Positions 3,043 through 31,206 of a stretch of 64,000 nucleotides of DNA are shown piece by piece. Position numbers and translations under genes: made by a program. The notes beneath the pieces were generated by a model. That model made no database searches. It was not told the DNA's origin and worked only from the letters and a program-made list of their open reading frames with translations. Positions within the stretch are counted from its first letter, which is position 1, and each line of letters starts with the position of its first letter. The DNA comes from Phoronis australis (lineage: Eukaryota; Animalia; Phoronida), in the NCBI GenBank assembly GCA_002633005.1, contig NMRA01000715.1, positions 120,776 through 184,775 on the forward strand, in the 5' to 3' direction.

Positions 3043-5200
3043 CACTGGAAAGACCAAATAATATTGTTAGGCAAATGAGAAAGTCAAGGAGGTCTGCAAG
3101 TCTGAAAGAGATGAGAACTTCAGACGACTAAGATTATTCATTATTGGGACCAGAAATCAGGGAAAGGCTAATAGAAAAAAATTCTTTGCTAGTTGTGAAA
3201 TTTATACTATTTTTCAGACATGGAACCTAGAAAAATGTCTAAGTTTGGCTTACGTTGGAACATCATATCCCAGAAATGGTTGATTGTATTTAAATGGAAC
3301 TTTCACAGTGCTTTATAGACTGTCGTTCCATTTTAGCATAAGAGGGTATCAAAACAGTGCTTTTATGATTTTCATGAAAAACTCACAAGTCGCATCAAAG
3401 AATGTTACAAAATGACATTTACTTACAGCAACAATAGTTTTGTCTTGAACATTTATACCGAACATGAACTTGGTCAAGTTATTGATCAATACCATTGTTT
3501 TGGAAATTGCAACCAACGTTCCTTAAATTTGCCAAATTTCACTAAAAAGACATAGTCACAAGACCTAATCAATAGCAGATTGGTAAAAAGTCAAAAACCA
3601 AAATCTTTCTCCTTAAATTCAGATACTGAATTAAAGTCTATTGAGTTTATACTCAAGAGATTAAATACAAAGGCATCCATAAGGTCATACACAATGGCAA
3701 CAGAAAAAAAAATGTCCTACTCTTCACACAACATCGAAGGAAATAATAAGCCCAAGTCTCTTCTTTCCTTGCACAGCAAAGAGAAATGGAAAATCCAGTT
3801 GTAAACTGAAATAGACTGAAACCAGTAAATGTCTATAGGGCCATATCTTTACATAACTGTCAGGACTAATATCCAGAGGGCTTGAAATCAAAACACCAGG
3901 ATATATGGGCATTAAGATGAACAGTTGACTTGTGCAGGGGTAGGCTTTCAACATTTATGGCATACAAGCTTATTAAGAATGTGCACCTGACTTCCACCTT
4001 GAAAGTCAAGCCCATAATGGGCAGTCTTTAATAACTTCCTTTTCAAGTGGCACTAATCTCCATCACTGTCTAGCCTTAGGAAGATATTCAGCACAGTGCT
4101 TATAGGTGCCTAGACCTAAACTAAGTGAATACTACCTACATACTGTTAGTCTCTGGATGTGGTAGAGAAAGGAAACTGCCAGCTTAACTGGTGATTAATG
4201 ATGTAAGTAATTAATATACCAGGCAACAATCTGACACACAATGCACAAAACTATATAAAGCATGCTGATCAAAAAATCAATATTCAGTGAAGTAAAGTAA
4301 ACAGGCTCTCCCACAGACCTTATTACATGTAGGTAGTTATTACAGTCTTAGCATGCCAGGAAATGATCAGGCAAATGGCAAAAGACCTTTTGGGACAAGC
4401 AGGGTGCATTTCTGTCCTACTTCCCTTGGTATGTGATTGTCTGAACCTGCCACTAAACAGCACAAATTAACCAAAGATTTGTAAGACCTTGTGTTGGTTT
4501 TTCATGAGCAATGAGATTATAGATCTTAGCAGTTCATGCAAAAGATGGTGATTTTGACCTATTTTTTGCTGAAGTAGTCTAGGAAATTTGCAAGTAGTTT
4601 ATTAAATGGATTAGGAAAAAAATGCCATGCACAAATACACGGGGAGGGGCTCACAAATGGGACCATGTACAAAAAACACTTAACACTCAATAAGACTGTA
4701 ACTTCAACAGTCAGCTAGTGCCTCAATTTGCACCAATCTGCAACCAGTACTTCCCACATGACAATATGTGCCGGCATTGTTTAAACTTTTGCTGAAAGCA
4801 GACTCCATCAAAGACATTTGGACTGAAGTTGTATCACAGCTACCAAACATACTTGGAATATAAAAGGATCTTCACATGACATTAAAAATGTTTTGTTTTT
4901 TGCCGTAAAAACAGATCTGTTATGGTTAGTTCTTCATGCAAAAAAGGAATATTTTAAAAACAATGCCAAATGGCAGTTGATGGGAGCTGTGCACGAGCCC
5001 AGTATTTGAAAGTTAATTGAATCTGATCAACCATTTCCAAAAAGTTTTAACATGATGTTCCAAACTTAGCCAAATTTAAATTTGGACATTTTCTTGAATC
5101 TCGTATAATTTCAACTGGCCTATATTACAAAAGTACAGTTCAACAAAGCTGCTTATCGACCAACACTGATAGGCAACATGGATACTGTGAAGAGTGTACC

Positions 5201-8123
5201 CCACCCATTGTGTCATTAAATTTTCAATCACACACTATGATTGCATCATGTCAGCACCCACAAAGTAGAGATGTTGTGGCCATAATACTTTGTATGGTAC
5301 ATACACATTGCAATGAAACACAATCAGCTGGGATTGTCAATCAGTGTAAAGGGTCTAGCATATTCAGGCAGTCATTCCTCAAAATTCCAGCCAGGATGCC
5401 CTAAACCCATAACCTAGACCAGCAAACATCATATACTGGCACAAATCCCAGATCTGTGCTACAAATCTCCACAAACTCACCAAAAACGCTCTAAACCCAA
5501 TGACCAAGTCCATTCCCAGGGACCCACTTGACCTCACATGAACTGTTCAACAGGAGCTGGAGTTTGGTCTCCAGGTACACAACATTAAAGTCCTGTGTGT
5601 GGAGTAAAGGGGTGTGGCATTGGAATTTGTACTGGAGGTTTGATATTTAGTTATATAGTCTGGGTTTTAGGGTCTGTAGGAGGAACAGATGGGTGCAGCT
5701 GTGCATTGTAACATAATAGGTTCATGACAATGTGGTTAGCACTTAATATCAGGTGAGGTAACTGGATTAAAGTGAGCCAAAAAGATGGTGTGAATTTCAC
5801 TTACCCTCTGAACACTTGGTGTTCACCCAAACTCAAACTGGTGTTATAAGAGAAAGCTATGTCATATAACCAAACCCATTTCCTAAGGCCTTACCTCAAA
5901 TATGCCCAGACAATAAATAAGGAGACTTGTAAGATACAAGCAAATGGAGCATCACAAAGAGTGCTTCCACAGCAGACTATGTCATTATGTTAGTATTGTT
6001 GTAATGTCTGGGTTCTGGACCCTGGGCTCTTGGTGTTGCATAACACTTTACAGGTAGCTATATAATCCTGTATTTTAAATTGTGGAGTTAGAATTGAACA
6101 ATTTTAACTAGAGTAAAATCAACAGGGTAATTTTTAGAGGCATAAAACAAATAGCAGTGGTNATCTCCCATATTCCATTTGGCAGTACTCAAAATCACAA
6201 TGTCAAAATTCAACAAAACCATAACTAATTAACAACCTTTCTTTTGTCCCAGAGCATCTTTCAGACAACTTCTTGACAGTTGTTGAACAGAACAAACATT
6301 GATTTTACTATGCGCTCCTTCATGGAAAAACTGGGCTTTCTTAATTGTGCTGTGCAATTTTCAATAAACTGATGTATTCTTGAAACTGTTACCTCAGCAG
6401 TGCAGGCTAAAGGTTAAAATAAGCACTTACCTGGAGCTAGACAAGAATCTCTCTGAAATTGGTTTAAGGATAATTCCTACAATCCTCTAGTGATATCAAC
6501 TAATCACTCACATGAACCTCACGTGTCCAGTTATACAATATCTATTCTTATATTGTCAACATTTGGTAGTGGTAAAATTGTACTACGTACCTTTTTATCA
6601 ATGAATTAAACAGTGGGGTGAATTTGCCAAGTCATGCTGGAAACTAGCTCAATAGAATACCAGCAAAACAGTGATAACAGGGAAATTGTATTAACGAGAT
6701 GTCAGTGAGAATGTGAGAGTGTGTGAATGAAGAACTGCCCGTGCAGCAAGGAAATATTTTTGTTATGAGGACTGCTTACTAGAACTTTTGATGATTATCT
6801 AGCTTCTTACCACATGCAAGAGATACAAAGTCATCGATGTGTTCGGTTTTGCATAAAACAGACATCTTAAGACACATTAAGTGAATTCCTGACAATACAT
6901 TTGCAGGTCTTCTAAGCAATTTTTGTCAGACAACAGGATGTAAGTTGAGTGTGTATGATGATGGACACAAGTGACGGATGTATACTCTGAATTTTTTAGT
7001 ATTGTAGGTTCTCGCTAAAGGGGACTTTTCATATTCATTTGGCACTCTCTAGTGTAATGAGAGCATGAACATGAGTTCCGACTGATACCGACTCAGATTT
7101 GATGGACAGAAATTCAATTACTACATAGTGGTTCATTAATTTAAAAGCAGGGGAATGAATCCCAATTTTCCACTGTTTGAATATTTTATGTTCAGTAATT
7201 TATTATAGCTTTTTGACATCGACTCGGATCAAAATTCTGACGCTTTATAAGCTGCAGTCATTGGCTTTGCCATCACGATACTTCTTTGCAGTGGGAAATG
7301 TATGAAATATGATGTACATGTTCATCCATGGATATTGCAAAAAGTCTGCCTTCTTTGTAAGACAGTAGTACATCCCTCCGCACAGCACTGAATTTCAATA
7401 TGGCACGGCTACTTTGAATGTTATGAAGAACAATTCAAACTTGTGTATTTAAGCTATATATTGGTCTTTTGCTAAAGATTCAATTTTTAATTAAAATACA
7501 CTGACTGACCTTTCACCTGAAATCATCAGCTCCAGTAAGCCAATGGTGGGTATTACTAGATTTTAATTTTTCAACACAACTTGGTTAGATACAAAACAAC
7601 TGGTTCTGTTTGGTTTAGTTAACTGCAAAGGGCATTCATATTTTGATCCAAGACAAAGGTGGTGTCTTGCAGTGTAAACACAGACACTAAATTATATCAA
7701 AAAGAAGATTTTGATTTTGGAATATGTGGAGATCTCTAATAAAATACTCAAATGCTGGTCGTTTTTAGTAATTAGCTTGGTTAGCTTTTCATTCAGCTTT
7801 TTAACTCGATGAATAAACAAGCTTTAGTCCAATAATATATACCATGTATTATACATTGCAAAGTTAATAAAATTGGTTTCATTACAATCATAACAATGAC
7901 AAAAATATGATATCTGCACCTGATGACAAGGTAAAAAACAATATTTTCAATGCTTTCATACAAAATAAATACATAACCACAACATAAGACAATGTGTCGT
8001 GTAAAACATGGGTAGAAATGTCCATTCCAAACATTACAACAGGCGAGTCGAGCTAAGTTCCTTGGGTATGCTATGCTCAGAAAACCATATGTTAAACACT
8101 TATTCATATCACATTTTAATGCT
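5201..8123 (+). repeat. Direct duplication copy 1 (~2.9 kb) of 11180-14150
   Basis: Colinear near-identical sequence from ccacccattgtg to ttaatgct, with scattered SNPs and small indels. A single n at 6162 replaces ~45 bp present in copy 2. Confidence 0.95.
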
Positions 8124-8124
8124 A

Positions 8125-8949
8125 CACATAGTGTACTTAATTATCGGACGGAACCTAAATATCGGACATTTCATAGAATCTTACTTGAAGCATAATCTGA
8201 GAATTAAATGACACCAATTTTTGTTCCGTTGTAATGCATTCAATGTCCGGCACCGTCTCGTTTTTTTTACAGCGTTGCCTCATTTTGATTTCACCGAGAG
8301 AGGGTGCAATTTAGACCCCCAAGTCGGCCTCAAAAATGGACGATCGCATAAATCGGTTATAAAAGTTGAAAATAAAATCTTTTTCCACAATGAAACCATC
8401 TCATTGAACTGACAATATGTCACTGTTCCATTTTTTCGTTTGTTTTTAAACTCAAGTCTAACCCCGACCGCGCACGTGCGGGTGTCATATCAAGAAGCCT
8501 AAGTGATACTAAAAACTGCACTGAGTTTGCACGTGCTTTAGTCGTCTGCACTAATTCATCGAAACGACTTGGCGCCGTCATCAGATTTCATTTCATGGAT
8601 AATTTTGTTGCGAATGGACCTGGGTTCTAGCTGCATATATGTCAAAAATTTGGAGCTGAAATTTGGCGACAAGGTGCCCGCGGCCATTACGTGGTTAGTC
8701 AGTTTTCCGCGGTGTGGCGTATGGAGAAACATGGTGTCCGATATTTAGGTTCTCCGAAGGTTTGGTTGTTGTGTTTTTTGAAGATCAGCCGGAACATAAA
8801 TGTGGCTTTCAGTGACAAGATATAGTAACAGAACAATTCCGTGAAGGTAAATCTTTATTTCAGCAAAGAATTTACTACAGTCCGTAATATTTTCAATTAA
8901 ATATAATGCAAAATGTGCCAAAACGTCCGATAATTAGGTCACTTGACTG
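8125..8949. mobile_element. Non-autonomous Tc1/mariner-pogo-like DNA element (MITE), TA-flanked
   Basis: Imperfect TIR cacatagtgtacttaattatcggacg versus the reverse complement of the right end, cagtcaagtgacctaattatcggacg. TA on both sides (8123-24, 8950-51). Internal inverted copy of aacctaaatatcggaca (8151 and 8735-8751). CpG-rich relative to flanks. Confidence 0.8.
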
Positions 8950-9650
8950 TATATGAATTCCGTCTGTTTTGCATTACCACAGAAAACCAGGGTCTCTGAA
9001 GTGAAGTAAGCAATTATTGATAGAAATATTTAAGAAATTCAACACTACAATTCATGAACTCTACCCTTGATTGTCAAAAAGTTTCTTGTTTACTAAATGT
9101 ATCCTGATTGTTCTGCATATGTATGTATACTGATATTTATCAATCAACAGATAACAATTGTCTGCAGATGTTGGGTGAATTTGTTTGCAGTTTCATGTTT
9201 AATTTTGTGTACAAGTTAAATTAATTTGTATTCTAGCTGTAAGCTTATATCTTATTGTCCCATAATGCCTTTTCATGTTATTTATCGATAACACTTTTTA
9301 GTCTACCTTTTCCCAGAATTACAAACTAATACATGACATTGAGCTTGTCTGAGAATCGAGGCAATGTCTCTAACACGTCAATCGAGTATCATCACAAGAC
9401 TCACACCTGGGCACAGTTAAAAGCGTTCCTGTATAACATTCGCTTGCCGTTTCCATTCGAGTAGTCCCAAGTCAATTGCTCTACACACTTTCTTAGTTGA
9501 TTTGGTTACAATAAAGTCGGGTAGAAAACCCAAGAAAGGGTTTGCTTTACTACAGTTCAGTCTTAAAGTAACAAATATCACCTTACGTCATTCACAGATA
9601 TGGTGGAGCGGAGCCAGGGGACAGAACAGTGGTAAGTGATGAAAGGAAAC

Positions 9651-9836
9651 TGTCCTGTCTGATTGGGATGGTGAGGCAGTTTGTCTGCACGTTGGATGGG
9701 TATGCTAGGGGTTGTCCTGTTTTATTGGGATAGTGAGGGAGTTTGTCTGCACGTTGGATGGGTATGCTAGGGGTTGTCCTGTCTTATTGGGATGGTGAGG
9801 GAGTTTGTTTGCACGTTGGATGTGAATGCTAGGGGA
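9651..9836. repeat. 62-bp tandem repeat x3
   Basis: tgtcctgtc..attgggatggtgagg.agtttgtctgcacgttggatgggtatgctagggg repeated at 9651, 9713 and 9775. Confidence 0.92.
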
Positions 9837-9899
9837 AGATGACGTTTTGTAGACCGAGCTTGTTGCTTACATTTGGTTAAAGGGAAATTATCCATGTTA

Positions 9900-11330
9900 T
9901 ATCTGAAAACAAAATTGACATTAATGTTGGATGGGGTACACTTCTTGAAGCTGTCGGCTTTGATCTGGGCTATAAAGCAACAAAATGCGTTGTGTTTTTG
10001 TGATTTTGTATCCAATTGCCAATTCTCGTTGTTTGTCAGACATTCCGTGAGACCAAGGTTGGTGACTTAACCAGTTAAACACGCTTAAAAGACTGCCATT
10101 TATAGGTTGAAGTTCTTTGAAACAGCACTGATGCCACTGTGATCTCTGAGGTTGTGAATAAGATTCCACATTTCGGCTGATCTCAGTAAACCACTTTTCT
10201 AATGGACAGTGTTACTTTAATGGAAGACAGTNNNNNNNNNNNNNNNNNNNNNNNNNNNNNNNNNNNNNNNNNNNNNNNNNNNNNNNNNNNNNNNNNNNNN
10301 NNNNNNNNNNNNNNNNNNNNNNNNNNNNNNNNNNNNNNNNNNNNNNNNNNNNNNNNNNNNNNNNNNNNNNNNNNNNNNNNNNNNNNNNNNNNNNNNNNNN
10401 NNNNNNNNNNNNNNNNNNNNNNNNNNNNNNNNNNNNNNNNNNNNNNNNNNNNNNNNNNNNNNNNNNNNNNNNNNNNNNNNNNNNNNNNNNNNNNNNNNNN
10501 NNNNNNNNNNNNNNNNNNNNNNNNNNNNNNNNNNNNNNNNNNNNNNNNNNNNNNNNNNNNNNNNNNNNNNNNNNNNNNNNNNNNNNNNNNNNNNNNNNNN
10601 NNNNNNNNNNNNNNNNNNNNNNNNNNNNNNNNNNNNNNNNNNNNNNNNNNNNNNNNNNNNNNNNNNNNNNNNNNNNNNNNNNNNNNNNNNNNNNNNNNNN
10701 NNNNNNNNNNNNNNNNNNNNNNNNNNNNNNNNNNNNNNNNNNNNNNNNNNNNNNNNNNNNNNNNNNNNNNNNNNNNNNNNNNNNNNNNNNNNNNNNNNNN
10801 NNNNNNNNNNNNNNNNNNNNNNNNNNNNNNNNNNNNNNNNNNNNNNNNNNNNNNNNNNNNNNNNNNNNNNNNNNNNNNNNNNNNNNNNNNNNNNNNNTAA
10901 TTGATATTAAAATCGGCATTGGTATTATTAAAGGAACTTTTGATCTTTTGTTTGCTGCTCTTGGTCTGTCAAATGCTTTGGAGAAATTATGAGATGCATT
11001 GGTAGGAAAGCTAAACTTTGAAGTGTCTAAGAAGTAGGTCACACCAGTGCAGTGTGCAGTTTTAAACCATATATAAATACCTCCAGCATGACCATTGTTA
11101 TGGGTAGACACAAAACAATGTCAATAACTGACATTCAACATTTGCGTCGAGTTTGGAATTTATAATGTGGAGAACACTGCCACCCATTGTGTGATTAAAT
11201 TTTCAATCACACACTTTAATTGCATCATGTCAGCACCCACAAAGTAGAGATCTTGTGGCCATAATACTTTGTATGGTGCATACACATTGCAGTCAAACAC
11301 AATCAGCTGGGATTGTCAATCAGTGTAAAG
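9900..11330 (-). mobile_element. Degenerate non-LTR retrotransposon (CR1/L2-group LINE) ORF2 remnant spanning the gap
   Basis: Frameshifted minus-strand fragments resemble APE endonuclease motifs (GHAGGIYIWFK ~11070-11100; ADFNIN ~10900-10918). After the gap comes a W...EMWNLIH.LRD...WQSFKR..VTNL linker typical of these ORF2s. Recognised by motif memory only. Confidence 0.5.
10232..10897. other. Assembly gap (N run)
   Basis: Run of n characters. Confidence 1.
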
Positions 11331-14150
11331 GGTCTAGCATATTCAGGCAATCATTCCTCAAAATTCCAGCCACGATGCCCAAAACCCATAACCTAGACCA
11401 GCAAACACCATATACTGGCACAAATCCCAGATCTGCGCTACAAATCTCCACAAACTCACCAAAAATGCTCTAAACCCAATGACCAAGTCTCTTCCCAGGG
11501 ACCCACTTGACCTCACATGAACTGTTCTACAGGAGCTGGAGTATGGTCTCCAGGTACACAACATTACAGTCCTGTATGTGGAGTAAAGGGGTGTGGAATT
11601 GGAATTTGTACTGGAGGCTTGATGTTTAGTTATAGTCTGGGTTTTAGGGTCTGTAGGGGGAACATATGGGTGCAGCTGTGCATTGTAACATAACAGGTTC
11701 ATGACAATGTGGTTAGCACTTAATATCAGGTGAGGTAACTGGATTAAAGTGAGCCAAAAAGATGGTGTGAATTTCATTTACCCTCCACTTGGTGTTCACC
11801 CAAACTCAAACTGGTGTTATAACAGAAAGCTACATCATATAGCCAAACCCATTACCTAAGGCCTTACCTCAAATATGCCCAGACAATAAATAAGGAAACT
11901 TGTAAGATACAATCAAATGGAGCATCACAAAGAGTGCTTCCTAAAGCAGACTATGTCATTATGTTAGTGTTGTAATGTCTGGATTCTGGACCCTGGGCTT
12001 TTGGTGTTGCATAACACTTTACTGGTAGCTATATAATCCTGTATTTTAAATTGGTGTGGAGTTGGAATTGAACAGTTTTTGCTTAAATCCTAACTTGAAT
12101 AAAATCAACAGGGTAATTTTTAGAGGCATAAAACAAATAGCAGTGGCGGCTTTTGGGGGGGGGGAGGCACTAGGGAGCCACGGCCGTCCATAAAAATCTC
12201 CCAGATTCCATTTGGCAGTACTCAAAATCACAATGTCAAAATTCAACAAAACCATAACTAATTAACAACCTTTCTTTTGTCCCAGAGCATCCTTCAGACA
12301 ACTTCTTGACAGTTGCTGAACAGAACAAACATTGATTTTACTACGCGCTCCTTTATGGAAAAACTGGGCTTTCTTAATTGTGCTGTGCAATTTTCAATAA
12401 ACTGATGTATTCTTGAAACTGTTACCTCAGCAGTGCAGGCTAAAGGTTAAAATAAGCACTTACCTGGAGCTAGACAAGAATCTCTCTGAAATTAGTTTAA
12501 GGATAATTCCTACAATCCTCTAGTGATATCAACTAATCACTCACATGAACCTCACGTGTCCAGTTATCTATTCTTATATTGACAATATTTGGTAGTGGTA
12601 AAATTGTACTACGTACCTTTTTATCAATGAATTAAACAGTGGGGTGAATTTGCCAAGTCATGCTGGAAACTAGCTCAATAGAATACCAGCAAAACAGTGA
12701 TAACAGGGAAATTGTATTAACGAGGTGTCAGTGAGAATGTGAGAGTGTGTGAATGAAGAACTGCCCATGCAGCAAGGAAATATTTTTGTTATGAGGATTG
12801 CTTACTAGAACTTTTGATGATTATCTAGCTTCTTATCACATGCAAGAGATACAAGGTCATGTGTTCGGTTTTGCATAAAACAGACACCTTAAGACACATT
12901 ATGTGAATTCCTGACAACACATTTGCAGGTCTTCTAAGCAATTTTTGTCAGACAACAGGATTAAGTTGAGTGTGTATGATGATGGACACAAGTGACGGAT
13001 GTATGCTCTGAATTTTTTAGTATTGCAGGTTCTCGCTAAAGGGGACTTTTCATATTCATTTGGCACTCTCTAGTGTAATGAGAGCATGAAAATGAATTCC
13101 GACTGATACCGACTCAGATTTGATGGACAGAAATTCAATTACTACATAGTGGTTCATTAATTTAAAAGCAGGGGAATAAATTCCAATTTTCCACTGTTTG
13201 AATATTTTATGTTCAGTAATTTATTATAGCTTTTTGACATCGACTCGGATCAAAATTCTGACGCTTTATAAGCTGCAGTCATTGGCTTTGCCATCACGAT
13301 ACTTCTTTGCAGTGGGAAATGTATGAAATATGATGTACATGTTCATCCATGGATATTGCAAAAAGTTTGCCTTTTTTGTAAGACAGTAGTACATCCCTCC
13401 GCACAGCACTGAATTTCAATATGGCACGGCTACTTTGAACGTTATGAAAAACAATTCAAACTTGTGTATTTAAGCTATATATTGGTCTTTTGCTAAAGAT
13501 TCAATTTTTAATTAAAATACACTGACTGACCTTTCACCTGAAATCATCAGCTCCAGTAAGCCAATGGTGGGTATTACTAGAAGATTTTAATTTTTCAACA
13601 CAACTTGGTTAAAGATACAAAACAACTGGTTCTGTTTGGTTTAGTTAACTGCAGAGGGCATTCATATTTTGATCCAAGACAAAGGTGGTGTCTTGCAGTG
13701 TAAACACAGACACTAAATTATATCAAAAAGAAGATTTTGATTTTGGAATAAGTGGAGATCTCCAGAAAAAATACTCAAATGCTGGTCGTTATTAGTAATT
13801 AGCTTGGTTAGCTTTTCATTCAGCTTTTTAACTCGATGAATAAACAAGCTTTTGTCCAATAATGTATACCATGTATTATACATTGCAAAGTTAATAAAAT
13901 TGGTTTCATTACTATCATAACAATGACAAAAATATGATATCTGCACCTGATGACAAGGTAAAAAACAATATTTTCAATGCTTTCATACAAAATAAATACA
14001 CAACCACAACATAAGACAATGTGTCGTGTAAAACAAGGGTAGAAATGTCCATTCCAAATATTACAACAGGCGAGTCGAGCTAAGTTCCTTGGGTATGCTA
14101 TGCTCAGAAAACTGCATGTTAAACACTTTTTCATATCGCATGTTAATGCT
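11180..14150 (+). repeat. Direct duplication copy 2 (~2.97 kb) of 5201-8123
   Basis: See copy 1. Here the left end continues into the LINE remnant and the right end abuts the 3' flank of the piggyBac ORF. Confidence 0.95.
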
Positions 14151-14291: not shown

Positions 14292-16052
14292 TTATGCATC
14301 TTCAGCACCTTGCTGTTCATCGTAATATGCTTTTTCGTAATTCCTATAGCTATGATACAACCTGAAGCATGGCACAACACACAGTGTCTTTTTACAGACA
14401 TTGCACTGGTAAGACGATTCTCTACCGGGCCTTTTTCGCTTCTCCCCTACTCTTGATAAACGCTTCCGTTCAGCAGGTTGACACACAGCACAGGCTCGAG
14501 AAATGTTTTTCTTAGTACCTGTGCCTACGATACGCTCTGGGAAGTGTTTACCATGAAGACGGAGAAGAGGCTCACCCGAGGATCGCCTACCGACAAAAGA
14601 AGAAGGATGTATTACATCGTCATCAACAGATGCAATTATGCCACTAATTAGTTTTTGCCTGAACTGACGATGCAGCAGTGGAACACGATCAGAGGTTACG
14701 GATTTGTACACCAGATACGCATTCAGTACAGATAATGATAAAACATGAAATATGACCCTCTTCCACCATTTAAGGGTTCGAGCATTAAAGGTAGAATAGC
14801 TGACCATTTGGTCAGAGCGATCTACTCCACCCATGAATTTATCATATGTTATCACTACTGCTGGCTTCTCTATAGGGGTTTGGTCACGTGGATTTGTTTT
14901 GCCAGTTGTTATTTTGCTACCTTTATCAACAGTTGTTAATAAATAGACTACTTTTCTGTCATGGAATTTTACGAGTAATAAGTTATTGTTATGTACACAA
15001 AATATATCTCCCTTATTGAGTTTCTTTTCTTTCACGAATTGGGGCACACCGCGTCGATTTTGACAAAGAGTTCCTGTAGCACCGCATCCTAACTTCCACA
15101 GATCTTCATAAAGTTTGATGGAACTATAATAATTATCCATGAATAAAATATAGCCTTGCCCAAAGTATCCTCGCATCAAATCCATTACTAGATCATATGT
15201 TGCTCCGTCTTCAGAAGGGGGTGTTTCGCTTTTGCCAGAATACAGTTTGAATTTTGAACAATATCCAGTTACAGCATCACAAATCTTGTAGGCTTTTATT
15301 CCATATTTTTTTGGTTTGTCAGGGTTATACACTCTAAAAGATAAATTTCCTTTCCAAGGCACCACTCCTTCGTCTAATGAGAGCTGCTGATGTGGTGTAT
15401 ATACAGAATGAAAGCGGGAAATAATGTTCTGGTATAATGATCCAAGTTTGTGCAATGGGTTGAATCCAGGTAGGCCACGGCGAATTTGGTTGGCATCATC
15501 TGCGAGGTGGAAAAATGACATAAGCAGCCAAAATCTGTCCCGAGACATACATTTTCGAAAAAAAGGAGTTTCGCAAACCTCATCAGTTGTCCAGTATGAA
15601 GACAAATCCAGTTGGACAACTAGTCCCATCGCGATTGTCATTGCGAGAAACACCTTCATTTCCTGCCAGGTCGTATCTCGCCACTTTTTAAGCCGGGAAT
15701 TCCCCTTCAACTGATCTTGATTTTTAGCGAGTTCGTCAGCGGCGTACCTGTTAGTTTCTGCAGCCATCTCTCTAAAATCATCGTCAGTGACGAATAAGTT
15801 AAAAAAATCGAGCGGCTGGGGATCTTCAGGCAGCTGAATTCCCGTAGCTAAACCAGGAGTCGCGGAAAACCCCAGATAGGTGGGGTCGCGATCGCCTTCA
15901 ATCCAATCTGCCTTGGGGCCACCAGGCAAGTCCAGTTCGTCATCGGACGAATCTTCATTATTTTCACTTTCAAACCCTTCAAATTCCTCTCCACTTTCAG
16001 CATCATTAAAGATTTCGGTGAAGTTTCCAAATTCAGGTAAGTCAGACGCCAT
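14292..16052 (-). CDS. piggyBac transposase / PGBD4-like protein, 586 aa, uninterrupted
   Basis: Acidic N-terminus. Catalytic DDD motifs SLDEGVVPWKG, FMDNYYSS and MGGVDRSDQ, plus KPKKYGIK, MSRDRF and KWWKRVIFH. C-terminal Cys-rich domain RACAVC...SSYQCNVCKKTLCVVPCFRLYH. First ATG at 16052 (MASDLPEF); the ORF track starts at an upstream TTG. Confidence 0.96.
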   Translation of the reverse strand: MASDLPEFGNFTEIFNDAESGEEFEGFESENNEDSSDDELDLPGGPKADWIEGDRDPTYLGFSATPGLATGIQLPEDPQPLDFFNLFVTDDDFREMAAETNRYAADELAKNQDQLKGNSRLKKWRDTTWQEMKVFLAMTIAMGLVVQLDLSSYWTTDEVCETPFFRKCMSRDRFWLLMSFFHLADDANQIRRGLPGFNPLHKLGSLYQNIISRFHSVYTPHQQLSLDEGVVPWKGNLSFRVYNPDKPKKYGIKAYKICDAVTGYCSKFKLYSGKSETPPSEDGATYDLVMDLMRGYFGQGYILFMDNYYSSIKLYEDLWKLGCGATGTLCQNRRGVPQFVKEKKLNKGDIFCVHNNNLLLVKFHDRKVVYLLTTVDKGSKITTGKTNPRDQTPIEKPAVVITYDKFMGGVDRSDQMVSYSTFNARTLKWWKRVIFHVLSLSVLNAYLVYKSVTSDRVPLLHRQFRQKLISGIIASVDDDVIHPSSFVGRRSSGEPLLRLHGKHFPERIVGTGTKKNISRACAVCQPAERKRLSRVGEKRKRPGRESSYQCNVCKKTLCVVPCFRLYHSYRNYEKAYYDEQQGAEDA

Positions 16053-16100
16053 TCTTAAAAGTGGAAATATTGTATCGGAGTAATTCCGTGAAAAGGTCAA

Positions 16101-16125
16101 CCTAGAGGCAAAAAATTAAAATTGT
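16101..16125 (-). promoter_or_regulatory. 3' splice acceptor upstream of the transposase ATG
   Basis: Minus strand reads ttttaattttttgcctctAG|gttgacc: pyrimidine tract plus AG, 49 nt before the ATG. Confidence 0.65.
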
Positions 16126-17674
16126 GACTAAACTTATATTTTTGGTCTCATCTGAAAGCCCAGTCTCTCTAGTTTCATGGCCCATATTCAACTGTCCAAT
16201 ATTTGAGGTCACTTGACCCAAAAAATTAGCTGACATTATTTAATGCATCACTTTAAAATTGAAAAGAAGGAATGAGTTAAAGAGCTGTGGATATAAAGAT
16301 AATCATACTAACGACTAAATAACGACCAACATTTGACAAGTTTATTAGCTCCACATATTCCTAAATCATAATCCTAAATGTAACTGTATCTTAATTAATG
16401 TCTTGTTTTCAAACTGGAAGACAACACAGTGTCTTGAATGAATGCCAATATGAAGTTGATGCTGTCAATTAAACCATGCTGAGCAAGTGGTCTGCTGGAC
16501 AATTTGTTATGACAAGATACTGAAGTCCTGTTTACGAATACTTTTAAACATCAACTTTGAGCATACGTCAGAACTATTAAAAACATAGCCCAGAAAATAA
16601 GTTTGCACAAGCTGAGGGTGAGTTTTAATTTAAAAAAAAAAAATAATTAAAATGCGTTTTTATTACAAAGATCAGTAGTAATTTTTAAACTTGATTTCAC
16701 ATTTTATACTTTGACAATCACATTTACTTATTAACTTTAAACTATATTCTACTTAATGCATAAAAACAGTTTTCCTGCTAACCAACAGTCCTTAAATACA
16801 AAATGGTTAGTCTCATTCTCTTTGAAGCTCAGTGAGGATTTTAGGAGGTTTTTTATCATTAATCAATGTATTGAGAAGTTAAAATCATGGAGTGCATTCC
16901 CACGATAGGCCTACTTGTGATGACTTTGTCAAAAGGTCAATCGGTGCATTTTGATTGAAAAACATTGAATCAGAAGCAAAAGACCAATTCGGCTTAAGTA
17001 CTGCAAAAGTTAGAATTTTTGTGAATTGATATCTTAGTTACAACAAACAATTTAATACTAAAATTCAGAGTGTACATCCTTTATGTATGTCCCTCACACT
17101 CACTCCACTTACATCGACAAAAATTTCTTAGAAAATATCATCAAAAAAATTAATGAGTTGTACTTTGCAAACATTCCACTAAATCATCATATAAAACAAA
17201 AATTGTAACTAAATGCGTCTCACAGAAACTTAATGTTGAATTTTTTTTTCAAAAATTCAAATACTCTGCGTACGTCCATCACAGCCATTTAGAGACTATT
17301 TTCTCAGTCAGGAAAAAATAGGAGAAAATTTGATACATGTTTTGAAAGCTATAGATGAGATCTAACAATTGATGTATTATTTATTATTATTTTCCTTTTT
17401 TTTGTATCTTCAACATCTCTTGACCAATCTGACTGAAATTTGTTATATGAACAGATCTTTTCAAGCACTACCAGCATTACGAACCCATTTCTTGCTATGA
17501 CTAACATTCTCACGATATTCGAGATTTACTTATCAGATGACTGCTCTTTTGTTGACTAAATTACACAGGCATCCTCAGCTTTTGATCGTCCCCAATACAC
17601 TATATAATACTACAAGGTATGACACTCTGGAGTAGAAATTCCACGGGTGCTTCACTTCAGTTGTCCAAAGCAAG

Positions 17675-18147
17675 CATAAAACTCAAAAAAATTACACAAA
17701 ACAGAGGTTCCACAAACCAAGAGGAATAGTTCTTTCTCCTAATACCATTTACGGTGTCCTGCTCCACCGAGTTCGCAAGAAATTCGCGGTCAAAGCACAA
17801 AAATCTTCCCAAAAACCACGTCCGGAGCAACTCCTTGGTCCCACGCGCAGGCTACGGAATTAATCAATGAGTTACGGATGTACGATAATTGCCAATTCAT
17901 CACGGAAAGTCATGGCATCGACAACTCGGCTATTGCCATTCATCCGTAACTCATCCGATTATTCCATACCCTACGCGTAGAACGAAGGAGTTGCTCCAGA
18001 CGAGCTCTTTGGGAAGATTTTTGTGCTTTAACCGCGAATTTCTTTTGAACTTGGTGTGAGCAGGACACTGTAAATGGTATTGGGAGAAAGAACAATTCCT
18101 CATGGTTTGTTGAACCTCTGTTTTGTGTAAATTTATTGAGATTTATG
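17675..18147. repeat. Long inverted repeat / hairpin 1 (arms 17675-17880 and 17941-18147)
   Basis: Arms of ~206 bp are reverse complements, with about 23 substitutions and 3 small indels by manual alignment. Confidence 0.97.
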
Positions 18148-18724
18148 AATGATTTTGGTATCGTTGCATTCCTCAGACATCTGGCTATCCGTACAAATGC
18201 TTTTCACGACCTTCAATTACTCTAGTCTATAACTACGCTGTTCCGAACTCGGTCCACTTTACTCTTTAGCCACGCACATCGTGAAATCGGCAGCCATTTC
18301 AGGGAACTTACTGTATCTAGCGATATCTATCGGCGATTTGCTACAACACACGCTGTTCCTTTTTCATCAGTCAACGTCATTGGTTGATTTCGTCAATTAT
18401 TAACGACAATCGTTATTAATCATCGTACGTCTGCTATCGTCATCACCTTCGTCGTCTCTCTCACGATCGTATCTGTCATCATCATGTTATCGTCGCCCAT
18501 GTTGACTGATGAAAAAGGAACAGCATGTGTTGTAGCAAATCGCCGATAGATGGTGCTAGATATAGTAAGTTCCCTGAAATGGCTGCCGATTTCACGATGC
18601 GCGTGGCTAAAGTGGACCAAGTTCAGAATGGCGTAGTTATAGACTAGAGTAATTGAGGGTCGTGAAAAGGAATTGTACGGATCGCCAGATGTCTGAGGAA
18701 TGCAGCGATACCAAAATCATTCAT
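18145..18724. repeat. Long inverted repeat / hairpin 2 (arms 18145-18375 and 18501-18724)
   Basis: Arms of ~225-230 bp are reverse complements, with about 15 substitutions and one 7-nt indel. It shares ATG (18145-18147) with hairpin 1. Confidence 0.97.
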
Positions 18725-19180
18725 TTAGACCTACATTTAGTGGATTTACTTGCAATAAGTTAGGGTTCATTATATCCGACTAGTGCCGCTCACCTTTAAA
18801 TTTTTAATTTCTTTCACCACGTGTCGTTCTTCAGAGCACTTTCATTATATATTTTTGTTGTGACAGTCAAACAAAGTCTGCCCAAGATGCTTGTCAAGTG
18901 GCATTTGCCTATTAGACGAACGGTTTGGACTCTCGATTCTCACTCTCAGGCTGGAAAGTGAGAATCCCACCCCCCGGCCCGGTTTACTCTAGCCAGTCAC
19001 TAAAAGAGTCAGTCATTCAGTGTCGGCGAATTTTTCAACAGATGTTTCGTCCTTTCATTTACAAATGTTGGCCACTATACCTTTCAACTTCATTGTTTGT
19101 TCAGGACAATCGATAAAAGTAACATTAATCCACGTTAATTACAGAACCGAACTTTAACACGAAAACTGGTGTCTGTAGAT

Positions 19181-20240
19181 ACTCACCGACTGTCACCCGT
19201 CGCAGACGTTCGAGTACAAAATTGCAGAGCAATATGTAGGTCTACAGGCAATATGTTCCGGAGTATGAATTATACGATCGATTATTAAATAAAATTAAGG
19301 GTATGATATCATTGATAAAATGTGGGATTTAAAGTAAAATAAATGCTCTTTCCACAACATATGGCATGAAAGAAATCAAGATAGACCACTGAAGTGAAGA
19401 CAAAACCCAGTTGGTTTAAATTGATCAATCGTCGAATACTAATTTATTCCTGAATAAACACAAATCAACGTGCGTGGGTGCTACTAGTCTCTAAATCTTG
19501 CAAAGGATCAGATTTTCAGGTGGCCGAACGGTTTGAACGTTAAGACTCTGGTTCGATTCTTAGCCTAAGCAAACCTGAGGTCCGTACTAAGTAACCAGGT
19601 AGTTAGCTGTATGAAGACTACACAGCTTAGCACCAAGGCAAGTTTAAAGACTTAGACTGCACCGTCTCTCGCTGGCCTCTCAGACTCAGTTCAGTAGAGG
19701 TGGTGAAACTAGGAGCTTTATACGCCATGAGCTTTTCAGCGAATTTTCCCTCACACCCAGTGGCGGATCTACGGTGGGGGTTCAGGGGGTTTATCCGTCC
19801 ACACTTCCAAAGTAGGCAAGCATTTTAGATGGATCCACCGCTGAAAGAGCAGTTCTACAGCTGATTACTTTAGGTTAACTAGCTTCTTTACTCTAAAATA
19901 TGTTTTGATTTAATTTAAGGGAAATACTGTGGTGCCGCAACCTTGATATTCAGGCGAATTGACGTGCAACGTTTTTACCTCACCTGTCATGCTGTGTCAT
20001 TCTGTTACACTCCACACGTTTGTAACTGAGTCATGTATAGTAAAGTTGTCTTGCGCAATATCATACAGTGTAAAATACATGTAATATTTTTGAAAAAAAT
20101 TCTTTTCCCGAAGAATTGCTATTGTGTCGGGCGCCGTGATCTGGTCGCGACTCCGTTTGTTCATCATATCATGAGATAACCCTTGAAACCATCTACTTTG
20201 CAGACTAATCGCATCAAGTCTACAATTTGAAAGTAATCAG
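19181..20240. promoter_or_regulatory. Probable divergent promoter region with non-coding first exons
   Basis: Minus-strand donor tcg|GTGAGT at 19187/19186. Plus-strand candidate donors at 19599 (cag|gtagtt) and 20233 (aaa|gtaatc). Locally CpG-retaining. Both flanking CDSs begin right after a splice acceptor, so upstream UTR exons are required. Confidence 0.45.
19758..19843. mobile_element. Very short CAGTGGCGGATC-type MITE remnant
   Basis: Termini cagtggcggatct / ggatccaccgctg are imperfect inverted repeats, with the same terminus as 32794-33807. No TSD seen. Confidence 0.6.
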
Positions 20241-20503: not shown

Positions 20504-23500
20504 ATGAACATGAAGATGATCAAGTTGAACAACAATTGTATGATGCCCCTTATTGGTTGTAAGTAATCGTCTCTGTGTTCTGCTGTGAACCCTGGATTAT
20601 TGTTTCACTCTGTGCTGTGCTTAGAACAATGAGTCCTTTTAACTTTGTGCTATACTGAGAACAATTTGCTGTATTGTGAATGATGAGTCATTGTTTCATT
20701 CTGTGCTGTACTGCTGTCAGCAATGAGCCATTGTTCATTCTGTGTTGTGAACGATGAGCATTTGTTTCATTCTGAGCTGTGCCATCAGCAATTATCCATT
20801 GTTTCACTCTGTGGTAGAACTAGTAAGTGGTGACGTCTTAATCAAAAGTTGTTTTGTGTTTGAAGGTGGGTTAATTTATAGATCTTCATTGATTTTTATA
20901 TTGTCGCTTAAATTATTTTATCAAATATACATGCTCCAAACGTACGTACCAAACTTTCTTCCTGCCTCCTATGTGACATGTTGCTTTGTGATAGATTATG
21001 TACCTCTGTTCTCTATGTCATCTCACTGTGCACTTCTGTTCTCTGTGTCCCCTCACTATGCACCTCTGTTCTAAGTGTCACCTCTCTATGCACCTCTGTT
21101 CTCTGTGTCACCTCACTATGCACCTCTGTTCTAAGTGTCACCTCTCTATGTTGTTTCAAAAGTTGTTTGCCACAAGTAATGGGAGCTTTGCCAAATATTT
21201 TTTTGTGCCATTACCAAGTTAACAATAGTCTGAGTAAAACTTAATCATTTTTGTGGGAAAATTTGACAAATTGTCTACCATATTGTGTGCCAGGAGGCAT
21301 TACTAAGTACCGGTATATGTAAAGTTTGGAAACTTATCTCACAATATTTGCTGACCTAAATGTTAAGTACAGTATTAGCACAGTTTTAAAATGTCCCTTC
21401 ATGTATCCATCTGCAGGGCCCACTTGCATAAAAATTACAGGCTGCATAGCAACAGTGACGTCGCATTATCACTCATCACGTTGTTATTGTTGAACAATGT
21501 GCCTGACGTCATGCAACAGTCAAACTTATCCAGCAGATAATTTCCAGTTTTCAATGCAACCCAATCCTGATAATGACTGGTTTTTATTTTCAGTTTAAAG
21601 TACCTCACGTTTTTTAGATTAGGTATTTTTAACGGAAATGTAAATAAAGAAATAGGTAATATGTTTTCATTCCAGTGGGCACATACAAAGTAACAGGGGA
21701 GATAATGTATTCAGTGTTGGAAGCTGCCTTGAGGTCTGGTTATAGAGCAATTGGTGAGTTGACTGAAAATAACCACCTAGGCACGGTGACAGTCAGACAG
21801 ATATTTAACAAACAACGGTTGTGTCACTGGTTACAACACTGTGTCACTGGTCATAGCACTGCGTCACTGGTCACAGCGTTGCATCACTGGTCACAGCGTT
21901 GCGTCACTGGTCACTGCGCTGCGTCACTGGTCACTGCGCTGCGTCACTGGTCACTGTGCTGCGTCACTGGTCACAGTGCTGCATCACTGGTTACAGCGCT
22001 GTGTCACTGGTCACAGGGCTGCATCACTGGTCACTGCGCTGCGTCACTGGTCACAGGGCTGCATCAATGGTCACTGCGCTGCATCACTGGTCACAGCGCT
22101 GCGTCACTGGTCACAGGGCTGCATCGTTGGTCACTGAGCTGCGTCACAGGTCACAGCGCTGCGTCACTGGTCATAGCGCTGCATCACTGGTCACAGCACT
22201 GTGTCACTGGTCACAGGGCTGTGTTACTAGCTACAGTGCTGTCTCACTCCTTGCGCTCTACGTGAAAATTTGATGTCACAATTTCAGTTGCACTACTTGT
22301 AAGACATAAACTTCGTAGCTCGATCATTTTGATGGAATGTGTCTTTGTTCACCAATTTATTTGATGAGTGTTATAACAAACTTTTAAAAATGAAATCTCA
22401 GCAGCCATATTTAAATATTCACATTCAAGTTTCTACACTGACAGTGGTTGACAGGGACATCATTAATACCTTTCACAAATTGCCCGAATCTTAACTGCAG
22501 GTGTATGAACATAGAGAAATCACCGAAATACTGAAATCTCAAGTGAACGGTTTCCAGTCCCAATTTAAGGGAATTTTGATTTATAAATTGACTACATCTA
22601 TGCAATTATTTCCAGAAAAATTTCAAAACTATTCTAATTTGTTTTCAGATACAGCTTGGGGTTACAGGAATGAATCTTTCATAAGTCAGGAACTGGCTAA
22701 ACTTTTGCCGTCAATGAATTTGAAAATGTCGGACATTTTCCTGACTAGCAAGCTTCGTGAGTATGACAGTTTGACGATTTGCCCAAATAAAGTAATTGTG
22801 CATGCTATGTCAAGAGTCTGAACGAACCATGTATGTTGGTCAATGCAAACTGCTTTCCAACACTGCCAACTCTGGCCCTTAGCCACCATGATGGTCGTAA
22901 CCAACTCACAATTCACAGCATGTAGTGTTTACATGTTGTGAATCATGGTGAATAAACAGATATTAATATCAAAATATTAATTAATATTCAATAAGCACAC
23001 CAGTCCTGTACAAACATAATTTAGACACAGTTCTTAATTTTCTGATTTACACGATTTTCAATGTAAGACTTAAGGCATATACCATGATTATTCTAACAGC
23101 TCGAGATTTTTCGTAACGAGTTCACTCTTTGTTGAATTGTTTTTCAGTTATAGGAAATATTTTAAAAAATGATTTAATATTGTGCAACAATATGTTTTGG
23201 GTAATTTAGAATATACAGCTGCAAAAGTGTGATTCACTAATAAACAACAAGGACGAAATTGTGACAATCTCACCATCTGCCAGGACTGGTTTCAGTGCCA
23301 ATAGCTGGCTTATTAGCTCTGTTCCTCTGTAGTCATTTATGTGTTCATCAGATGTTGTGCAGTCTGGTGCATAGAACTGTTTAAAAAACTCAACACTCGT
23401 TATGGTTTGTCCATGTGCAGTGCACTGGGTGGGTGCATGTCAAGGTGCACTGGGTAGGCGCATATCAAGGTGTACTGGGTGGGTGCATATCAAGGTGCAC

Positions 23501-29197: not shown

Positions 29198-30165
29198 TTT
29201 TTATGCCCTACATAGTTATATTATGTGGTCGCATATTGCCGTCATCTCTGGATGTCTGTCGTCCGGCATCCGCAGCTGTATCTCCTGAACCCCTTGCAGG
29301 ATCTTGATGAGATTTGTCAGATGTGTTCCTAGAGCTAACGACAAATAACGACAAATTTCGAACCTATCCGACTACTGTTGTGCCCCCTAGTGACAGTTAT
29401 TGTTTTTGCATTTACTTCTGTATCTTCGGAGGTCCTCAACGGATTTTCATAAAATTTGGTGAGATGATGCTATCCTCCTGTTTTCGGATGGATTCGAGGT
29501 ACTTTGCGCCACCTAGTGGTCATTTTCACTGTTTTCGGTGTCCACCCTTCTATCAAGCAAACTGCTCTAGGTACGATTTTCAAAATTGGCATATACGTTC
29601 TTACTGTGAAGAGTGCGGCTGACGATAATTTGCCCACGACTTTGACTACTGTGGCACCTACTAGTGGCAGTTATTAATGTTTGTTTTTGCACCTATGACT
29701 GTATCTCCTAAATGCTCTACAGGATCTTCATTGAGTTTTGCTGGTGTATTTATTTGAAGTTTACAACAGAGGACTGTTTTCGAGTTTGTTTTTTGGCGTT
29801 TGGCCCCTCTGTCAGCCAAACCAATCTAAGGATGACTGTGGAAATAATTATTGGCATGTATGTTCCTAATGTGAAAAGGAGGTCTGACGATTTTTTGACG
29901 ACTTCATCTACTGTGGCACCTCTTAGTGGCAGTTAAGTTTTTTGCGCCCATAGCCACCTAGTGGCAATTTTATTTTTTTTTTGTTTTCCTCTCAGAAGTT
30001 CCTTGAAGCATTTTTATGAAATTTGGTAAAAACTTTGATGACACATACCAGTTTTCAGATGGATTCAGCCCACTTTGCGCCATCTAGTGGCCATTTTTAT
30101 GATTCACATAAACCATTTGGGGTGCATTTCTTGGCGCATTTCAGTGCCAGAGGGTTGCTCTTGTT
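29198..30165 (+). mobile_element. Helentron-associated non-autonomous element (HINE / DINE-1 / pearl-like), copy 1
   Basis: Starts ttttatgccc + short hairpin + gtc-rich tract, has internal degenerate tandem units, and ends ggcgcatttc...gttgctcttgtt. Homologous to 36503-38117. Confidence 0.75.
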
Positions 30166-30612: not shown

Positions 30613-31206
30613 TTAAATTTCTTTGGGATTAAGTCCGAATTCCAAAAGATTTTTCTTAGTCTTCAGGTGAATCAGTGCCACCTCGTTGTCCCATCGTGTC
30701 TTTGATTTGGACAGCTTCTCCTCCAAAGAATCTAGTGCACTTTCAAACACCGACTCATACGCCAGAGTCATTTGGTTAATCAAATTTTTCAAGCGCGCTA
30801 TGTCTTCGTCTTTTTCACGCTCCATTTTGTTCTGGGCCTGTATCGTCTGCGTCAGTTCGTTTTGTGTTTTTTCTAACTTTGTTCTCGTTTCGTCAAGTTC
30901 CGCTGTGAGTTGATCGATTTTGTTGCCCATTTGGCTTTGCATCGTCATGTACAGTCGCGTCAAGTCAGAGCAGACTTCTTTATTGTCGTCTTTTATAGAC
31001 TTCAGTTCTATTTTTGCATCCGACATTTCTTGTTGAAGGATTGCTTCACCTTTTATAGCGCGACGTGCGTTGATTTTTCGCACAGCAAGCTGGTCACGGA
31101 GTGCGACGATTTCTACTCTAGTCTTTTGCAACTGTTCTTCAAGCTGTTGTTGAACATCGTTAACTGCCGCCTTTTTCTTCTTGCCCTTTGTGGGTTTCGG
31201 GGGCAT
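30613..31206 (-). CDS. CCDC153: Coiled-coil domain-containing protein 153 (dynein regulatory complex subunit DRC12)-like, 197 aa, single coding exon
   Basis: MPPK..KGKKKK N-terminus; ALRDQLAVRK..ARRA, YESVFESALDSL..KL, WD and FGLNP motifs. Length and coiled-coil character match my recollection of CCDC153. Confidence 0.85.
   Translation of the reverse strand: MPPKPTKGKKKKAAVNDVQQQLEEQLQKTRVEIVALRDQLAVRKINARRAIKGEAILQQEMSDAKIELKSIKDDNKEVCSDLTRLYMTMQSQMGNKIDQLTAELDETRTKLEKTQNELTQTIQAQNKMEREKDEDIARLKNLINQMTLAYESVFESALDSLEEKLSKSKTRWDNEVALIHLKTKKNLLEFGLNPKEI

Follow-up and report, generated by a model that had tools for sequence, protein, structure and literature searches.

What kind of molecule leaves behind a stretch of animal DNA that reads as one linearised copy of a rod-like circle of about 1 kb? 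The question is raised by a 1050-bp double hairpin at 17675-18724 of a 64,000-nucleotide piece of the Phoronis australis genome (contig NMRA01000715.1, positions 120,776 to 184,775, forward strand; hereafter the window, meaning this whole stretch), in which a sequence-only reading had seen an integrated circle, joined at a CAT trinucleotide and perhaps derived from a viroid-like RNA or a DIRS-like retroelement. We find the double hairpin to be the inner part of a wider repeat copy, 17564-18788, which we predict with a probability of about 0.6 to be a non-coding, non-autonomous retroelement copy of the Penelope-like or retrozyme type, with a unit of ~1.26 kb that has been opened within a hammerhead-like motif.

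The window resembles an animal scaffold, with a piggyBac-like ORF, minisatellites and a gap of 667 N. The piggyBac-like transposase frame (14292-16115, minus strand) is open over 607 codons (PF13843, E 7e-85), and high-depth repeat DNA at ~16900-17300 may be the end of this piggyBac-like element or another element. The gap is flanked by a direct duplication of 3 kb (5201-8123 and 11180-14150, 94% identical), which is either a tandem duplication or an uncollapsed haplotype. Elsewhere in the window are a short exon-like stretch (~21660-21760, plus strand) followed by a 20-bp minisatellite, whose motif presumably resembles the start of an aldo-keto reductase; two degenerate repeated modules (29199-29954 and 36503-37850) with a CCACCTAGTGG motif and a TCCG microsatellite, which we take to resemble non-autonomous Helentron-associated elements; and an uninterrupted 211-codon coiled-coil frame (30613-31248, minus strand), which we assume to be CCDC153-like and whose Pfam matches are weak and confined to the coiled coil.

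The double hairpin is made up of the following parts, for all of which strand is not applicable except where given:

17675-17880: arm A of hairpin 1, whose pairing goes on imperfectly to 17893
17881-17940: spacer x, with the true loop at ~17894-17927
17941-18147: arm A' of hairpin 1, pairing with A
18145-18147, plus strand: ATG common to A' and B, which we read as microhomology
18145-18375: arm B of hairpin 2, pairing with B'
18376-18500: spacer y, rich in TCG/TCA and repeated in other copies
18501-18724: arm B' of hairpin 2, pairing with B

Arm alignments gave 182 matches and 23 mismatches for A against A', and 209 matches, 15 mismatches and one 7-nt indel for B against B'. They bear out the layout and register first proposed for this locus (A-x-A' followed by B-y-B'), as well as the 3-nt ATG overlap of A' and B and the CAT at both ends of 17675-18724; in sequence, the B'-A join is, as had been claimed, nearly the reverse complement of the inner junction. 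The arm coordinates also stood, and the extent of hairpin 1 had been drawn too short: its pairing extends imperfectly to 17893/17928, leaving a loop of ~34 nt. Because the BLAST E-values of the arms are as low as 1e-133 and 5e-89, the double hairpin is not a product of chance. Folding of the circularised 1047-nt sequence, which had been suggested as a check, does yield a rod, with 84-85% of the bases paired and energies of -694 (plus strand) and -720 (minus strand) kcal/mol. Within the window there is no further copy of the double hairpin. Six of the 23 mismatches between A and A' place A opposite A, and at five of these arm A has the letter that is rare in the read sets, a transversion skew between A and A' in 17675-17880.

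The outer limits of the element were read from four contig sets (X1-X4), which come from one sample with the same species label and were compared over 16700-19700; statements about the family refer to contig and read matches as listed. The left CAT (17675) is bridged by diverged contigs covering 17629-17782 (X4) and 17609-17707 (X8), and the majority loose-end letters at this site read CAC, not CAT. The right CAT (18724) is bridged over 18631-18787 (X1), 18647-18787 (X3) and 18599-18776 (X8). Both CATs are internal positions and not element ends, contrary to the earlier claim that the element starts and finishes with CAT and that similarity stops there. On the left, loose ends accumulate before 17564 in 101, 96, 86 and 35 contigs (X1-X4) and in 144, 150 and 169 RNA reads (X5-X7), with low agreement among the loose-end letters (0.36-0.41). 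At the right end, two long pieces of contig (X1 and X3, possibly one locus) stop at 18787, beyond which both continue for more than 1 kb unlike the window. Since the CATs are bridged and similarity stops at 17564 and 18787, the element comprises at least 17564-18788, and its unit is opened 111 nt to the left and 64 nt to the right of the CATs. This adds the following features:

17564-18788, hammerhead sense on the minus strand: wider element copy of 1225 bp, delimited by loose ends, piece ends and an 18788->17564 joint
17564-17674, minus strand: T, the 3' terminal segment of 111 nt, set off by depth and contiguous with A in other copies
18725-18788, minus strand: R, the 5' terminal segment of 64 nt, contiguous with B' in other copies and joined to 17564
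17557-17562 and again 18797-18802, plus strand: TAAATT, a weak candidate target duplication in AT-rich DNA, which may be chance

The TAAATT duplication is only 6 bp long and lies 8 bp off the right end. T and R have neither terminal inverted nor terminal direct repeats in common (one 7-mer complement and no direct 7-mer). Segment T, which we take to resemble a Penelope pseudo-LTR end, is common to a much larger repeat family than the whole stretch; further loose-end clusters lie at 17600-17610 (17606) and 17815, and other subfamilies share with the element no more than its final 43 or 250 bp. On the opposite side, the single-copy contigs of X1-X3 all start at 18795, 6 nt past the last repeat base, and the gap of 18789-18794 may be a presence/absence difference or filler DNA.

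The two ends of the element meet in a head-to-tail joint, in which 36 letters lie between 18788 and 17564. The joint occurs in X2 (depth 13) and X3 (depth 13.7), both from the same sample; 1225 plus 36 gives a unit of ~1261 nt. On the minus strand, T ends in CUGAGGA, one U and then GCCUGUG, the 36 joint letters end in ACAGG, AC and GAAA, and R starts with C after GAAA, followed by seven bases and GUC. We posit, as a component of the preferred reading, that the element ends carry the two halves of a putative Penelope-type hammerhead-like core, with these parts read from the sequence:

17564-17578, minus strand: 5' half of the hammerhead-like core, its partner half lying in the 36-letter joint
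17578-17572, minus strand: CUGAGGA box
17571, minus strand: extra U
17570-17565, minus strand: 5' arm of helix II
18780-18778, minus strand: candidate cleavage-site GUC in R, with a candidate short helix III

Helix II across the joint is CCUGU/ACAGG, and the two core boxes are 40 nt apart. Marks of the Penelope type are present in U 17571, G 17570 (minus strand) and the C before GAAA in the joint; Cervera and de la Pena (PMC4209133) assign to Penelope hammerheads an additional base that separates positions 9 and 10.1, together with a G10.1-C11.1 pair, and Craig et al. (PMC8557442) describe Naiad elements with cores that do not fit stem descriptors and have halves 35-50 nt apart. CTGANGA motifs occur 47 times in 63.3 kb on both strands. 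Of 795 such motifs in the shuffled window sequence, 3 had a 5-bp helix and GAAA 12-60 nt downstream, in a test devised after the joint had been seen. The majority letters beside 17564 in four DNA and three RNA runs resemble, by eye, the adjoining end of the 36 letters, so that these are probably the family's own loop II; the letters also suggest that many copies end slightly further into this loop. One RNA loose-end cluster (34 reads, X6) represents a related end in which the first core box is kept and the helix start is different. No helix I was found beside GUC (the flanking bases are G and G), T-R pairing is no better than in shuffles (fraction 0.10-0.44), helix III is not palindromic and the cleavage site is atypical. 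Rfam gave no hammerhead in the window (0 matches at the gathering score, for the window sequence as it stands) and three weak matches on the element (E 1.4-3). The loose-end letters near 17564 include CTAG, which is also a possible Helitron-type end. A hammerhead-like motif with both core boxes, an extra U, a 5-bp helix II and GUC was also noticed in an IMG/VR contig (L001, 2501-2542); the contig is unrelated, and its motif has no Rfam match.

The longest open frame on the element (98 aa) had 0 matches in phmmer, Pfam and the Atlas, and Pfam gave no match below E 0.19 for 11 of the 22 frames listed. With one in-frame stop, the 98-aa frame extends to an ATG near the right end:

18423-18770, minus strand: unsupported 116-codon frame, with its ATG 8 nt after GUC and one in-frame TGA

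As judged from its sequence, this frame is a possible ORF remnant. Pfam, phmmer and Atlas searches found neither a reverse transcriptase (RT) or endonuclease remnant nor an Oblin or delta antigen ORF, and a GIY-YIG ORF is absent; the sequence-only reading, too, had recognised no Oblin, delta antigen, RT or recombinase coding sequence. A tblastn locus (L002; 40% over 30 codons, with the E-value calculated against 27 pre-selected stretches) was taken as chance. Motif scans returned 0, 1 and 0 matches in viral contigs (the single match being L001), 0 and 0 in metagenome contigs and 0 and 0 in prokaryote genomes; phage blastn gave no match, and collection scans found no autonomous partner or helper element. 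The supplement of PMC8557442 had 0 matches for the 13-nt terminal motif and one unrelated match for its 9-nt form; line breaks and cut cells may conceal some matches. Descriptions of a non-autonomous Penelope-like element with long palindromes, or of an endogenous rod-like viroid in an animal, were not found in sources outside Repbase and most subscription journals. The supplementary consensus set of a retrozyme preprint (bioRxiv 10.64898/2026.07.22.740005) may hold similar elements.

Parts of the stretch are repeated in the genome and have spread as dispersed repeats. In X1, where the unique right flank matches at ~99% with a depth of 38.7, the summed contig depth, which is a sum and not a copy number, is 126,916 over 17508-17608 and still high across proximal A and A', whereas distal A, x, y and B' have ~3,000-13,600; at 18720-18820 it is 23,998. 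The rough ratios of these sums (again not copy numbers) to the flank are ~3,300, 2,700, 120-350 and 620. The parts thus differ ~5- to 30-fold in depth, with T and proximal A far above R, B and y, and the stretch could therefore be composite. Near loop y, the arms reach 8,675 (18350) and 3,006 (mirror position 18526) against 5,998 (18385) and 6,710 (18481) in the spacer (X1); taken together, arm depth is about twice spacer depth, as expected if hairpin 2 is multi-copy. Variants at sites 18385, 18436 and 18481 of spacer y occur in 15-25 contigs (X1), a contig piece ends exactly at 18501, and RNA depth is continuous over both arm-spacer borders. Hairpin 2 is probably multi-copy. At hairpin 1, x (17930) is joined to A' in one contig that has a deletion, and the x-A' border is covered by 40-45 RNA reads matching 17920-17965. 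The A'/B junction is bridged by none of the 32 pieces listed (10,279 more exist), among which the closest match to A' (5 differences; X1, X2) diverges at 18147 and stays unlike for the next 52-53 letters. We put the odds that the whole double hairpin is multi-copy at about even.

Three raw RNA runs (X5-X7; library selection unspecified) were read to 18-19% each, and gave 1,247 matching records in 12.75 million, 1,077 in 11.31 million and 792 in 11.05 million. Of the matching reads, 81-84% continue into unlike sequence, which fits read-through of scattered fragments. RNA had been proposed as a place to look for both polarities and for reads across the B'-A join; both orientations do occur, and the B'-A joint (18724->17675) is not among the 15 of 128 DNA and 15 of 22 RNA joints listed. 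Nor is an end-to-end joint among the 15 of 22 RNA joints listed (X5-X7), and read ends do not pile up at the predicted cut (18777/8) in these runs; with the library selection unspecified, a non-polyadenylated circle may have been missed. A>G and T>C changes stand to the reverse changes as 85:68, 81:58 and 89:47 in RNA (X5-X7), and as 64:66 (X1) and 50:61 (X4) in DNA, which has no excess; the regions and thresholds of the RNA and DNA comparison differ and the DNA is not matched. The excess is clear only in X7 (Fisher p 0.009 against X1) and hints weakly that the hairpins (17480-18880) undergo A-to-I editing.

Under the preferred reading, a Penelope-like RT/GIY-YIG protein acting in trans would use the RNA of the unit, tandem or circular, as its template, beginning at a fixed site in or near loop II, with insertion into AT-rich DNA. 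Each end of a monomer copy would then retain one half of the core, and head-to-tail joins would come from copying that runs on. According to PMC11167929, Penelope-like RT starts internally, at sites that coincide with the ends of genomic copies, with no need for ribozyme cleavage, and in the one element studied in vitro the start lies downstream of the hammerhead, not in loop II. The window copy is one of two or more that retain 11 nt 5' of the predicted cut. This suggests a circular or multimeric template, of the kind that PMC4209133 and PMC7761336 propose for Penelope-like elements.

The same unit may explain the register of the hairpins. The plus-strand order of the circular or tandem unit is B'-R-loop-T-A, and the inner A'B is its antisense without R-loop-T (~210 nt). 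An antisense copy that loses its middle leaves arms that stop matching exactly at the loss, so the register needs no circle joined at CAT. The hairpins would thus represent an inverted duplication of the junction-spanning B'-R-loop-T-A, from which the hammerhead segment was lost, with the deletion of the ~210 nt taking place at a microhomology of 2-3 nt, CA(T). An overlap of 2-3 nt at a deletion is ordinary microhomology. One route to this product would be inverted dimerisation of the junction region and then a single deletion; alternatively, a break between x and y, with fold-back synthesis on each of its sides, would yield the same. An intron as the source of the missing 210 nt was considered and rejected, since neither strand has GT..AG at the ends (by eye). 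Of the integrated circle that had been claimed, what survives is mobile DNA that looks like an opened copy of a circular or tandem unit; its place and family were wrong, and the listed joints (15 of 128 DNA, 15 of 22 RNA) include neither a circle joined at CAT nor the 17674->18725 joint of the proposed empty site. More speculatively, and in our view doubtfully, the inner antisense copy could serve as a splint, with two 220-bp hairpins drawing the element ends together and so rebuilding the split hammerhead. The monomer would thereby close into a viroid-like rod or cruciform circle that Penelope-like RT copies from loop II; these would be animal retrozyme-like circles of ~1.26 kb, 3-7 times the usual size, and a device like the DIRS internal complementary region would have evolved independently in a Penelope parasite.

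By analogy, the element would work most like an animal non-LTR retrozyme, and we do not file it as a member because its unit is too large and its ribozyme status is only putative. Metazoan non-LTR retrozymes have units of 170-400 nt (Cervera & de la Pena 2020, PMC7229834), and retrozyme consensus sequences span 51-972 bp in a tandem search that stops at period 1000 (Li et al. 2026, the preprint cited above). Like these, the element is non-coding, has GC below 50%, strongly self-paired RNA and a presumed dependence on Penelope-like elements, and would have a type I hammerhead-like motif where units meet. Besides the monomer, a head-to-tail form is represented by one joint in two runs of one sample, with no array seen. 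Unlike them, its unit is ~1.26 kb instead of 170-400 nt (up to ~970), it contains two long near-exact inverted duplications, its copy is opened inside the ribozyme, and it displays no canonical helix I and no abundant circular RNA in the three RNA runs. It shares with Penelope-like elements a hammerhead-like motif made atypical by one additional base ahead of helix II (PMC4209133), tandem and inverted structures, in insertions that often lack clear target duplications (PMC8557442), an AT-rich flank and a sharp common 3' end with variable upstream parts (here the ends at 17564, 17606 and 17815). It differs from them in lacking an RT or GIY-YIG ORF, in having the inverted copy, which usually flanks the unit, inside it and without the terminal segment, and in ends that lie in helix/loop II and not in the tail downstream of the ribozyme (PMC11167929).

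The strongest competitor, which we consider unlikely while giving it real weight, is a one-off composite: T-A-x and y-B'-R would be fragments of related Penelope-type repeats, the inner A'B would have arisen a single time, here, when fold-back synthesis and joining at microhomology accompanied insertion or the repair of a break, and no double-hairpin family would exist. It would account for the uneven depth of the parts, for the missing A'/B bridge among the 32 pieces listed (the closest listed A' contig diverges at 18147), for a contig piece that covers 17780-17926 and then turns unlike for 36 letters, and for a variant pair (18350/18526) common to B and B' and absent from most contigs. Fold-back inverted duplications with microhomology are, moreover, a known repair product (PMC11724301, PMC4689423). 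The 2:1 arm-to-spacer depth near loop y and the piece ending at 18501 indirectly suggest otherwise, as do the contig joining 17930 to A' and the RNA reads over 17920-17965.

We regard as improbable a non-autonomous rolling-circle (Helitron/Helentron-type) or other DNA element with palindromes, in which the hammerhead-like core would be incidental: CTAG occurs at 18780-18783 and ~8-11 nt outside 17564 (in the majority loose-end letters), and a head-to-tail joint without clear target duplication would suit it, but there is no 5' TC end, there are no subterminal inverted repeats between T and R, no GC-rich 3' hairpin is seen by eye, and the complementary helix II arms and both core boxes across the joint would be left unexplained. 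Far less likely still is a tyrosine-recombinase circle of the DIRS type, joined and integrated at CAT; in DIRS1-type elements the trinucleotide circle junction is formed by the termini. The complementarity of A'B to B'A with a 3-nt overlap does recall the DIRS internal region complementary to near-end sequence, which according to PMC6681497 matches the extreme termini of elements with terminal inverted repeats. Here, the complementarity ends 111 and 64 nt short of the real termini, terminal inverted repeats, RT and recombinase are lacking, other copies pass through both CATs (with CAC in the majority at the left), and neither 18724->17675 nor 17674->18725 is among the joints listed, so that we consider the DIRS-like option of the sequence-only reading largely refuted. 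Its other option, an endogenised viroid-like RNA, has next to no probability in our estimate. Obelisks and delta-like agents are rods of ~1 kb, a size and fold that the element has, and some invertebrate delta-like RNAs have a hammerhead-like motif as well (PMC7761336). Against this, the arms are 89-93% exact inverted copies with no G-U bias on either strand (11 versus 12 of 23 transition mismatches), the rod probably stems from inverted duplication at the DNA level, the ribozyme motif is in one polarity only, the parts belong to dispersed genomic repeats with no encoded protein and no protein match, the RNA reads are sparse, in both orientations and 81-84% partial, and viral and metagenome contigs have no match (the unrelated L001 aside). 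An assembly or amplification chimera, for which the 667-N gap of the scaffold and the unbridged A'/B junction among the 32 pieces listed might speak, is just as hard to credit: the arms differ by 7-11%, which argues against a fresh fold-back chimera with its identical arms, variants uncommon in the read sets are present in both arms, and an assembler would not join sequences over as little as 3 nt.

Were the full double hairpin unique to this locus, it would be an ordinary rearranged repeat. If the retroelement reading that we prefer is true, a large, hairpin-rich form would be added to the animal retrozyme-like elements, and the shared end of its very many copies would map where, with respect to the hammerhead, Penelope-like reverse transcription starts, a question still open for Penelope elements. 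The element would also illustrate how inverted duplication can turn ordinary retroelement DNA into a rod of viroid size, which calls for caution in rod-based searches for viroid-like agents.
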